Assembly (NCBI GenBank): GCA_965205975.1
Contig: OZ242195.1
Location: 576,001-640,000, forward strand
Direction: 5' to 3'
Source: Candidatus Latescibacterota bacterium
GTDB lineage: Bacteria > Latescibacterota > UBA2968
DNA length: 64,000 nt
Shown here piece by piece: positions 58,836 through 61,575 of the stretch. How positions within the stretch are numbered: the first letter of the stretch is position 1; every line of letters starts with the position of its first letter. Made by a program: the position numbers and the translations under genes. Under the pieces are notes generated by a model. That model was not told the DNA's origin. It was given only the letters and a program-made list of their open reading frames with translations, and ran no database searches.

Positions 58836-59134
58836 CAAATAGCCCGTAAAACCCACAGCCTTCAGGCGTGGGTCGCATGGCGAAGGGCTTCCTTTTTTAG
58901 CTTTAGCGTATATGAACTTGCCATATCGCCCTTGTGTGAGTATATTGCAATTTAGGTATGAGGTTCTGCACAAAATGATACCGCCCGTGTAGGTAAAACC
59001 TGGGGGTCATCTCCTATTTGGGATGCTTTCACCAGTGAACAAGATACATTGCTTTGCCCATTGGTCTAGGACGATGTACCAAGGCGGGGTTAATCGCCGA
59101 GAAGCCCAACTCGTTCACGGTTGGGAATCGTCAC
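58836..59134 (+). mobile_element. Non-autonomous IS200/IS605-family miniature element (no tnpA/tnpB)
   Basis: TTTAT immediately upstream. Left hairpin ACCCAC..GCC-ttca-GGC-GTGGGT. Right hairpin GAAG-CCCAAC..GTTGGG..TCAC. No target duplication. Excision restores a coherent gene junction. Confidence 0.8.
58918..58946 (+). promoter_or_regulatory. Sigma70-like promoter inside the miniature element
   Basis: TTGCCA-N17-TATATT. Confidence 0.55.
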
Positions 59135-59154
59135 CGCTTGAACTCCTTTACTTT
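58953..59154 (+). ncRNA. Putative omega/reRNA-like transcript (scaffold plus flank-derived guide); boundaries approximate
   Basis: About 180 nt without a long ORF and with self-complementary segments, between the promoter and the right-end TCAC. Inferred by analogy to TnpB reRNAs. Confidence 0.45.
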
Positions 59155-61575
59155 TTTGCGAATTTTTGCCTCGACATTTGCCGATAGTGGCCGAACGGGA
59201 ATTTTTTCATTGCTGTGACCTGCAACATCACCTGCGATGGATATTTCAAGACGCGGATGTTTGGGGACATAAGGTTCTTTTTCCAACATGGCATGTAACA
59301 AGACAAGGGCGGCTTCTTTGTCGGGAATCGTTCCTCTTGTATTGCCATCGTCGCCAGGGGGCAATGGTGCACCTACACACGACGGACACCCCACTTCACA
59401 TTCACATTCCGATACGACCATCCAGCAGGCTGTTATGACATCTTCGATCATCTCATAAGCTTTTTCCGAAAAACCAATACCTCCCGGATGCCGGTCATAT
59501 ACAAATGCGGTCGGTCGCCCCGTATTGGAGCTATCTATTGTGGTGCCAATATCCATGACATCGCACATCGCAAATAAGGGGAGCACTTCTCCCATTACAT
59601 TGGCAATGCCTTTGAGTCCTTCAGATGGTACGCGGCCATGTCGGCGACACTGGTTTAGCCCTTCCTGGGGCGGTACAACCCAGCAGGCGGCTGTATCGAG
59701 CTTGCGCTCGGGCAAATCGAGATTTTCCCAGCCAATGCTGTCGCGGTCTTCGAATTTTACTTTTTTAAACATCGTTACCAGTGACGAGACTGAGACATCG
59801 CCAAAATATACGTCACTGACGCGCCATGTGCCCGATATTTCGGTATCATTTACGACAATACTCGTCTCGTCAACCGCCTGGGTATAATAATCCAGTGCTT
59901 TTTGGCTTACCCGCGCAATTTTGCGCTCTGTATCGAGTTGATCGACAAAGTACGTCTGCCCATTGTGTAAATATACAGCGTGTGTATGTATCTGGAAAAA
60001 CGCGCTGATTTCATCAAGGGAACCGATTACCTGCGGGTCACTTTCTGTCTCGTCAATAATAGTATAAGTCAGATCGCTGATATTGCGTAGCCCAACCTCT
60101 GCCGCTGGATATCCCGATTGGCTGTAAAACCACTGCCCATTGAGCTGGCGCGCCATGCCTTCATCTGATAGGATCTCGAGCAGCGCACCCGTAAATTCTC
60201 CCATTACTTCGCCTTCTCCGCCCCGCACGGGCAATTCGCGCAAAGCACATCGCAGATGTCCCACGACGAGATGCGGATTGTTGGGGTCAATGGTCGCGTG
60301 TTCGGGCGATTGTCCGAAAAAGTAAGCCGGGTCGCGCATCAAAAATTGATCGATGGGCGCGTTGTGTGCCACAAATACCACCAGCGATTCTTCGGACTGC
60401 CGCCCCGCACGTCCCGCTTGCTGCCACATGCTGGAAATACTGCCCGGGTATCCCACGATTAACGCGGCATCCAGGTCTCCAATATCAATGCCCAATTCCA
60501 GGGCGTTGGTACTCACCACGCCGAGCAACTCACCTTCAAATAATTGCCGCTCAATTTCTCGCCGTTCTGCGGGCAAATATCCGCCGCGATAAGCCCGAAT
60601 TGCGCCTGTCAACTGCTGGCTTACCAGTGATAGATCTTCTTGCACATAGCGATAGATCACTTCTGCGGATGTGCGTGCTCTCACAAACGCGATGGTTTGC
60701 ACTCTGTTGTGGATGAGTTTGCCGAGCAACCAGCGCGCTTCGGTATTTGAACTGCGTCGATCACTCGTGGTGCCTTCCAGAAAAGGCGGATTCCAGAACG
60801 CAAAATGGCGTTTGCCCCGCGGGGAGCCATCCCGGTCAATCAGGGACATCGGCTGTCCGGTCAATGCTTCGGCGTGTTCTTTGGGATTTGCTATGGTCGC
60901 CGAGCAACACACAAATTGTGGGGGTGTGCCATAGTGCGCGCAAATTCGCATCAGCCGCCGCAATACATTGGCTACATGCGAGCCAAAGACCCCTCGATAA
61001 GTGTGTATTTCGTCGAGTACTACATAGCGCAAATTCTGAAAAAACCGCGCCCAGCGCGGGTGGTTGGGCAATACGCCCTGATGCAACATATCGGGATTGC
61101 TCAAGATTACTCGCCCCTCTTCGCGCAGTGTTTTGCGCTGGTTGGACGGCGTATCTCCGTCGTAAGTGCCCAGAGAAAATTTCAATTTTTCGTTTAATTC
61201 CCCAAATCGCGCCAGCCCGCGTGCCTGGTCCTGTGATAGAGCTTTGGTCGGGAAGAGATAGAGCGCAGTCGCCTGCGGGTCGGATAGGAGTGCTTCCAGC
61301 GTGGGTATTTGATAACACAGGGTTTTTCCACTTGCCGTTGCTGTAACTACTACTACGTCTTCCTGACGCCTCAGGGCGGTCAAAGCATCGGCCTGATGCG
61401 TATAGAGCCGATCAATGCCTTGCTGTTTCAAGGCGTCGGAGATTGCGGGATGCAGGGCGTAGTCATCAGCGACGAATTTAGCTTCTTGCGCGGGTAAGGT
61501 CTCTATATGAGCAACCTGACCGGCATACCCATAGTCGCGGCGAACATGCGCGATAAATTGATCAAAACTCATCAT
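59131..61575 (-). CDS. DEAD/DEAH helicase with C-terminal DUF1998 (MrfA/YprA/Hrq1 family)
   Basis: LY.HQ, TASGKT, PTKAL.QDQ, DEIH, SAT, QQAGRAGR and the Zn site CECEVGCPSC. Start is 61575 or 61572. Confidence 0.92.
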   Translation of the reverse strand: MMSFDQFIAHVRRDYGYAGQVAHIETLPAQEAKFVADDYALHPAISDALKQQGIDRLYTHQADALTALRRQEDVVVVTATASGKTLCYQIPTLEALLSDPQATALYLFPTKALSQDQARGLARFGELNEKLKFSLGTYDGDTPSNQRKTLREEGRVILSNPDMLHQGVLPNHPRWARFFQNLRYVVLDEIHTYRGVFGSHVANVLRRLMRICAHYGTPPQFVCCSATIANPKEHAEALTGQPMSLIDRDGSPRGKRHFAFWNPPFLEGTTSDRRSSNTEARWLLGKLIHNRVQTIAFVRARTSAEVIYRYVQEDLSLVSQQLTGAIRAYRGGYLPAERREIERQLFEGELLGVVSTNALELGIDIGDLDAALIVGYPGSISSMWQQAGRAGRQSEESLVVFVAHNAPIDQFLMRDPAYFFGQSPEHATIDPNNPHLVVGHLRCALRELPVRGGEGEVMGEFTGALLEILSDEGMARQLNGQWFYSQSGYPAAEVGLRNISDLTYTIIDETESDPQVIGSLDEISAFFQIHTHAVYLHNGQTYFVDQLDTERKIARVSQKALDYYTQAVDETSIVVNDTEISGTWRVSDVYFGDVSVSSLVTMFKKVKFEDRDSIGWENLDLPERKLDTAACWVVPPQEGLNQCRRHGRVPSEGLKGIANVMGEVLPLFAMCDVMDIGTTIDSSNTGRPTAFVYDRHPGGIGFSEKAYEMIEDVITACWMVVSECECEVGCPSCVGAPLPPGDDGNTRGTIPDKEAALVLLHAMLEKEPYVPKHPRLEISIAGDVAGHSNEKIPVRPLSANVEAKIRKKVKEFKR

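Follow-up and report, generated by a model that had tools for sequence, protein, structure and literature searches.

At positions 58836..59134 of a 64,000-nt stretch of a Candidatus Latescibacterota genome (the window), two minus-strand genes are separated by a short segment of non-coding DNA with a promoter-like motif and several potential RNA hairpins. This locus raises the question of whether a mobile element that lacks any protein gene can produce an RNA that guides a TnpB nuclease, supplied in trans, to the site from which the element itself is missing, as was proposed in a sequence-only reading of the window. Our results support most of that inference: the locus holds a 299-nt gene-less IS605-type element with a predicted guide RNA of its own. 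With a probability of roughly 0.7, we regard it as a non-autonomous IS200/IS605 element of the PATE type that encodes only an RNA, which would be loaded in trans by TnpB to cut empty alleles.

Precise, TTAT-dependent insertion of a gene-less element

The element is inserted precisely and in a TTAT-dependent manner, has intact TnpA-type ends and has been mobile within its genus. Its parts and neighbours are:

57784..58830, minus strand: polyprenyl synthetase gene (Pfam PF00348), the ATG of which abuts the target word
58831..58835, plus strand: target word TTTAT (TAM; the conserved part is TTAT), host DNA that abuts the left end of the element
58836..59134, plus strand: the whole ORF-less IS605-type element, 299 nt, without target duplication
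58848..58872, plus strand: left end, with the TnpA DNA guide AAAA (58848-51) and a subterminal hairpin (58852-72)
59101..59134, plus strand: right end, with the TnpA DNA guide GAAG (59101-04), a hairpin (59105-25) and the terminal TCAC (59131-34)
59135..59150, plus strand: predicted guide (host DNA in a putative guide role)
59131..61599, minus strand: MrfA/Hrq1-type DEAD/DEAH helicase gene (by Pfam, with both alleles translated)

The element thus lies between the helicase and polyprenyl synthetase genes, both on the minus strand. Because its last bases supply the helicase stop codon, the C-terminus of the helicase is unchanged compared to the empty allele. On the other side, the synthetase ATG is parted by the element from the word AAGGAG, which is found 13 nt upstream of the ATG in the empty allele. 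In antisense orientation, the predicted guide covers the last codons of the helicase gene as well as the AAGGAG found ahead of the downstream gene in the empty allele. Subterminal hairpins are present at both ends of the element, terminal inverted repeats are absent, and the only reading frames inside it are short, none of them conserved. The right end that had been proposed was confirmed, with TCAC at 59131-34. The feature originally delimited (58918..59160) corresponds to the right three-quarters of the element, which starts 82 nt further left, at 58836.

In the left ends that were compared, TTAT occurred with AAAA 19 times and TTAC with AAAG 7 times, showing that the target words covary with the TnpA DNA guides. 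The terminal words covary with the guides at the right ends as well (GAAG with TCAC 41 times, GAAT with TCAA 25 times), and the window copy has a fitting pair of guide and word at both ends (AAAA-TTAT and GAAG-TCAC). No second target for the predicted RNA guide was found in the genome, the best candidate being an 8-nt seed with at least 4 mismatches in 16.

Among 20 orthologous loci, four were filled, 13 close ones were empty and three distant ones lacked the target word. The empty junction is scarless, and insertion is 3' of a fixed short word. The prediction that the guide would adjoin TTTAT only after excision was borne out by the empty alleles of relatives, one of which (in G002) has exactly the predicted junction. 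In each of four RNA runs, too, contigs skip the element, leaving out 299 nt in two runs and 300 nt in the other two. Seven further copies (one of them 5'-truncated) were found at seven other sites in the genus, making eight sites in all; TTAT is located 5' of every copy that keeps its left end, and the guides differ between all insertion sites. A search of the GTDB collection with the right-end pattern yielded 10 stretches, all of which were gene-less copies from Ca. Latescibacterota. A full-length parent with the exact right-end motif was not found in that collection, and there were no matches in metagenomes, viral contigs or plasmids. Plain deletion derivatives (L039 and L110) also occur in the genus.

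On neither flank do the four filled alleles group as a clade (AU p of about 1e-6), and unrelated host lineages have near-identical elements inserted at one and the same base. The element in G006 differs from those in G005 and G012 at 9 and 6 of 292 bases, respectively, compared to a difference of 15–18% at the four-fold sites of the flanks. The window copy differs from these three at 46–51 element bases, and looks mosaic. Repeated insertion, short-tract homing and copy conversion are indistinguishable at this locus, because the nearest 40–50 nt are conserved in all alleles; co-conversion of the flanks is likewise undetectable in these near-identical nucleotides (0–3 differences between filled pairs, a mean of 2.5 between empty pairs). 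At guide position 6, G006 is unlike the other filled alleles, which argues against recent simple homing among these alleles. Four of the 13 empty alleles still match the TAM and a known guide, and this counts against the explanation that we prefer. A possible sign of escape in the empty alleles, with nine haplotypes among 12 alleles in the window of TAM plus seed (the top ≈5% of 373 windows), was set aside because it was post hoc and covers the last codons of the gene.

Promoter and structure of the RNA

The following features were assigned inside the element:

58918..58946, plus strand: sigma-70-type promoter, with -35 TTGCCA (58918-23), a 17-nt spacer and -10 TATATT (58941-46); predicted start at about 58953
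58954..59001, plus strand: 5' module, with an outer helix (58954-57/58998-59001), a conserved internal loop and a 7-bp stem (58965-71/58987-93)
59004..59028, plus strand: second hairpin, P2, with strong covariation (4 of 9 pairs changed on both sides)
59035..59118, plus strand: pseudoknot 2, 59035-40 with 59113-18 in the loop of the right-end hairpin; 100% of cells paired
59061..59132, plus strand: omegaRNA core, with hairpins 59061-65/59078-82 and 59083-87/59094-98 and pseudoknot 1 (59070-75 with 59127-32), adjoining the guide

The motifs TTGCCA-N17-TATATT, previously read as a promoter, were all located where they had been placed. Taken alone, such a pair is at chance level (1, versus 0.9 ± 0.9 in shuffles), but it is conserved across copies. 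A -35/-10 pair was found ahead of the RNA in all 10 copies examined, at a distance of 5–8 nt from its first bases in eight of them, and in the six copies with a 17-nt spacer the identity was 0.89 for the -35 word, 0.54 for the spacer and 0.76 for the -10 word. One copy in G016, with an RNA only 5 of 181 nt from that of the window, had its promoter replaced. A contig of RNA run X1 that starts at 58963, with a mean depth of 86 versus 3–11 for its neighbours, was considered as a sign of expression and set aside: it is 1748 nt long and belongs to another insertion site, and contigs show no start, strand or level.

The approximately 180 nt of structured non-coding sequence noted in the sequence-only reading correspond to a predicted RNA of 181 nt, in which the helices covary and two pseudoknots are present. 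In an alignment of nine RNAs, which left out the G012 copy (near-identical to G005) and a partial copy in G004, a structure with 42 pairs was paired in 98.1% of 377 cells, and 14 of the 42 pairs were changed on both sides. None of 500 shuffles equalled this structure, and slid partners reached 37–41%, although these controls flatter it, since the alignment itself served to derive it and the sequences are related to one another. The double changes in pseudoknot 2 came from a single copy, in G019, and are common to a close partial relative in G004, so that the double changes of both pseudoknots rest on one lineage. The excess of G-U over A-C cells (45 versus 3) places the RNA on the plus strand. 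Folding of the single sequence was no better than that of shuffles (z -0.05 and z -0.61).

Three pairings had been proposed from the sequence, of which TTGGT/ACCAA holds and covaries and the other two were rejected. CCGCC (58981) with GGCGG (59083) is whole in only four of nine copies, and the GGCGG pairs locally with 59094-98 in 97.8% of cells. A local TTCAC/GTGAA pair would leave a 2-nt loop; GTGAAC at 59035-40 pairs instead with GTTCAC at 59113-18. In pseudoknot 1, the hairpin loop pairs with bases -8 to -3 before the guide, which is the ISDra2 register. The RNA matched no covariance model of Rfam 15, with families such as HgcC, IS605-orfB, RAGATH and HEARO, either at gathering or at E ≤ 10. 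The sole result was a weak match to COG2908 on the left-end hairpin, with an E of 0.37.

The 374-aa TnpB family and the 48-nt front module

Seven long tnpB frames, each with D-E-D motifs and falling into three families, are present in the genome. A 374-aa family has three intact genes, one of them at positions 499771-500895 of the genome contig, in which these motifs (the RuvC triad) are kept. One of these three proteins was compared with the guided_TnpB cut-off and passed it, and the best natural structure matches of the 374-aa protein were PDB 8BF8/8H1J, of ISDra2 TnpB with its omegaRNA. A covariance model made from the gene-less RNAs alone and used to search the genome matched the element itself and the three 374-aa tnpB ends, and none of the other four tnpB genes. 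The last 72 nt of the RNA have 48–49 nt identical to these three ends (z 5.5–7.4). The likeness to tnpB right ends that the sequence-only reading expected is thus present in the 3' part of the RNA, by covariance model as well as by alignment, and a candidate cognate TnpB exists in the same genome, with intact genes and with matching ends and target word. By these comparisons, the 3' ≈75–100 nt of the structured plus-strand RNA are the omegaRNA scaffold of the co-resident 374-aa family. Loading is nevertheless not assured, since the 5' 109 nt could not be aligned with the cognate tnpB ends (z 0.5–1.5) and the pseudoknot letters of the element differ from those of the three resident ends.

Among 36 tnpB ends of the 374-aa family, the guide-proximal pseudoknot exists in three covarying forms and is fully paired in 35, within the letters that the search pattern allowed to appear. 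Elements of this family follow TTAT in 14 of 20 cases and TTAC in three; its TAM was deduced from these insertion words. The family is present in 15 of the 21 genomes of the genus. The 10 genomes with a gene-less copy all have it, and none of the six genomes that lack it has a copy, the genomes being kin and not independent.

Y1 TnpA was looked for and not found in this genome (98% complete, in a single contig), so that excision needs an outside transposase. Relatives have TnpAs of 142–146 aa; full-length Y1 matches were found in eight of 20 relatives, six of them beside a 367-aa tnpB family, and the four complete tnpA–tnpB elements of relatives that were read had related ends and other target words (TGAC and TTAG).

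The first 48 nt of the RNA (58954..59001) form a hairpin module of their own. The model of the gene-less RNAs also matched a locus in another family (G110), with which only these 48 nt are in common. A pattern for the conserved letters of the module, requiring neither IS605-type ends nor the inner stem, found 35 stretches in metagenomes. IS605-type ends were present in 25 of these, which belong to four families and show 16 different right flanks. An inner stem of at least 6 pairs is found in each of the 25, and a boxA-like word immediately upstream in 24; the remaining one is cut by the end of its contig. Two more stretches have the stem and the boxA-like word without IS ends, and eight failed a strict test. 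On 18 hand-picked examples, the module stem covaries (99% paired, with double-sided changes in 43 cells). Searching 151 genomes of the phylum with a model of the module gave 21 matches in 15 of them, including 10 matches that were new, and the outer helix, which was invariant in training, was compensated in four of these 10. The boxA-like word is absent from the window copy; the words of other lineages resemble the 16S leader of this genome. A relaxed pattern for viral sequences was abandoned, since 13 of its 15 matches were not the module and the other two were already known.

No tnpB was found around the 10 new module matches, up to 1.5 kb on each side, and the best match of the module in 39 tnpB loci had an E of 2.7. 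At least six kinds of right end are found behind the module. Of nine cores tested, four match a tnpB end in the same genome over 51–110 nt, two match over the terminal hairpin only, and three matched nothing among the loci compared. In Rfam, there was no match for the module-bearing RNAs of 19 other loci. The two bracket words of the module occur before RuvC-I in the 367-aa tnpB family, at a site, chosen after it had been seen, that has 3 of 9 single-codon columns among 122. At that site, the inner stem fails to form and the module model scores no more than 10 bits, and five of six more distant tnpB genes lack the bracket words. Descent of the module from tnpB coding DNA, as these words might suggest, is conceivable but rather doubtful.

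As to its function, we offer the tentative suggestion, at well under even odds, that the module is a portable adapter of gene-less guide donors. A promoter and module, with or without boxA, would have been grafted repeatedly onto omegaRNA cores of different TnpB families, and would enable an RNA that is not translated to avoid termination and decay and to capture TnpB in trans; such an RNA would presumably gain from antitermination. If this is true, any tnpB 3' end could be turned into an RNA-only homing parasite, and near-identical elements at one base in unrelated hosts would be a trace of cross-species homing.

Alternative roles and known systems

In the explanation that we favour, the promoter would make an RNA of ≈197 nt that ends in a guide of ≈16 nt taken from the flanking host DNA. 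This RNA would be loaded in trans by one of the three intact 374-aa TnpBs, which would cut TTAT plus guide, a target that would exist only in empty alleles, either after excision or upon arrival from relatives. With no TnpA found in this genome, the empty alleles that matter would either have come in from outside or have been made by a passing transposase. Repair from the filled copy would keep the element, and Y1 TnpA from another element would move it. The 48-nt front module would take the place of the translated tnpB message; our best guess is that it allows the production, survival or loading of a guide RNA that is not translated. Trans loading and the cutting of empty alleles are proposed by analogy with IS605 biology, as given in the text of Meers et al. 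(bioRxiv 10.1101/2023.03.14.532601).

We considered the possibility that the element is a passive relic, a deletion derivative with inherited structure in which only the ends matter, for TnpA, and the RNA is inert. Plain deletion derivatives do occur in the genus, as mentioned above, and single-sequence folding is unremarkable. However, compensatory changes are found in the interior, far from the ends read by TnpA, in copies that are 2–36% apart; G-U is kept and A-C avoided, the promoter is kept or replaced, and the 5' half of the RNA does not consist of tnpB coding remains of the cognate family, making a relic very unlikely. An RNA that binds TnpB without any DNA cutting, either titrating the nuclease as a decoy or repressing the helicase–polyprenyl synthetase operon through its antisense guide, would account for the antisense orientation of the guide relative to both the 3' end of the helicase gene and the ribosome-binding word downstream. 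Inhibition of TnpB by RNA is known (PMC10278001), and phage guide-RNA decoys of Cas9 have been reported. Such a role is nonetheless improbable: the guides differ at every insertion site, as expected of a mobile element, the TAM matches the cognate TnpB family, and the genome has no matching target elsewhere.

The RNA could also serve a protein that reads the 5' module, rather than the 374-aa TnpB, with the omegaRNA core as cargo. The module is indeed found without a recognisable right end (L129, L144 and L162) or joined to few terminal bases (L203 and L205), in addition to the three standalone RNAs of nine without a matching tnpB end among the loci compared. The IS605-type ends on 25 of the 35 metagenome matches speak against this, as do the pseudoknots of TnpB type that the core keeps under selection, and no protein family is shared beside the module in 22 neighbouring frames scanned. 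We consider this role highly unlikely as well.

The model of the sequence-only reading is right in kind, but is already published in the form of gene-less omegaRNA elements that act in trans (PATEs and standalone omegaRNAs), as far as the texts of those papers go. The new part is the 48-nt module, which is not in Rfam, stands at the front of RNAs from ORF-less IS605 elements with several unrelated types of end, in the phylum and in metagenomes, and is apparently undescribed. In the openly available text covered, we found no account of this module or of a boxA ahead of omegaRNAs, and no paper was found that links boxA with TnpB RNAs, judging by titles and the beginnings of abstracts. The locus offers a natural set in which filled alleles have exact empty counterparts, the cognate nuclease family can be named and the covarying RNA is freed from coding constraint, which makes the scaffold and homing model directly testable. 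If the module makes trans-loading work, it would explain the repeated rise of RNA-only TnpB parasites, and could help to express guides better in compact TnpB editors.

The standalone omegaRNAs of OMEGA systems, which reportedly go back to Altae-Tran 2021, are one precedent. They are mobilised, lack an effector or transposase and work in trans with compatible effectors, and their biological role is called unknown (PMC10691335). As summarised there, they are not given a conserved front module or boxA. The PATEs of Geobacillus stearothermophilus (Meers et al., bioRxiv 10.1101/2023.03.14.532601) are gene-less and of IS605 type, and often encode omegaRNAs for TnpB in trans; in that system, the TAM/TEM words covary with the DNA guides and TnpB cuts the donor joint. 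Like the window element, they are minimal IS605-type elements without protein genes. The text passages covered describe neither a promoter of their own nor a dedicated 5' module, whereas the interior of the window element is a selected RNA gene. The PATEs of Haloquadratum walsbyi have near-terminal palindromes, lack terminal inverted repeats and target duplication and are too short for a transposase (PMC3119063). These end features are the same as in the window element, but the H. walsbyi elements are described as deletion products, with no RNA function assayed in the text of that study.

The boxA of rRNA and CRISPR leaders is known by the E. coli and B. subtilis consensus words (PMC13753749); words near this consensus precede the module in most other lineages and are missing in the window copy. 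The ISDra2 omegaRNA has a pseudoknot via bases -5 to -3 before the guide, a terminal hairpin and a scaffold of ≈116 nt (PMC10097598), and the window RNA is like it in the register of the guide-proximal pseudoknot, the terminal hairpin and the scaffold. As described, the ISDra2 RNA overlaps tnpB and its region 5' of -116 is dispensable, whereas the window RNA's 5' region is non-coding, conserved and structured and, unlike in ISDra2, a second pseudoknot reaches the terminal loop.

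Other IS605 copies, in the genome of the window and at further loci

Besides its seven long tnpB frames, the genome (G000, contig C1) carries three right ends of the type belonging to the 363-aa TnpB family and three truncated IS605 copies:

G000:C1 1147983, (+), 363-aa-type right end
G000:C1 1392405, (+), 363-aa-type right end
G000:C1 3569951, (+), 363-aa-type right end
G000:C1:696097-696796, (-), left end and front part of a 367-aa-type tnpB
G000:C1 4797092, (+), left end and a few codons
G000:C1:937513-937728, (+), tnpB with an internal deletion, and its own right end

The three right ends are identical over 40 nt each, and no zinc-ribbon match was found near any of them. 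They probably represent a further gene-less family of this genome. At L039, L110 and L112, the 374-aa element has become a simple deletion derivative in which the coding 3' end is partly kept. No module, the 48-nt hairpin front of the gene-less RNAs, was seen in these three, which form a natural control set.

A possible RNA element within the 367-aa tnpB

The 367-aa family has a G-K-T-A motif before RuvC-I, in which the G, T and A codons are unchanged in 25 genes, and the stretch of about 58 nt preceding RuvC-I (for example, in the gene at G000:C1:2505434) is closed by a 7-bp helix. Together, the invariant codons and the helix hint that the coding region may contain an RNA element just before RuvC-I.

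Additional hairpin leaders

A conserved two-hairpin leader of about 115 nt, with no match in an Rfam scan, was present at two loci:

L026:2172-2291, (-), two-hairpin leader
L037:1935-2059, (-), two-hairpin leader

This leader separates the promoter from the RNA in the gene-less G019 copy, and from the start of tnpB in one G012 element. G110 has another hairpin leader, of about 60 nt, which stands downstream of the promoter and ahead of the boxA-like word in three of its standalone RNAs (L208, L210 and L211); two of these were scanned against Rfam and gave no match. In G010, the right end of a gene-less copy (L022) directly precedes a promoter and a possible TPP riboswitch.

The module on viral contigs and upstream of an ORF

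The module was also located in these settings:

L129/L163:1796-1846, (-), module within the tRNA/tmRNA cluster, phage contig of 411 kb
L164:1231-1846, (-), mini element bearing the module, viral contig
L203:1500-1552, (-), promoter, boxA-like word and module, G079

No IS end was within reach of the module on the 411-kb phage contig, and the L164 mini element adjoins a tnpB remnant having an HgcC match. At L203, the module is followed by the apparent last bases of a right end, and the whole set lies upstream of an ORF; L205 is a similar relic. The L203 and L205 modules are possibly co-opted leaders, and the start of the ORF behind the former presumably resembles DnaA.
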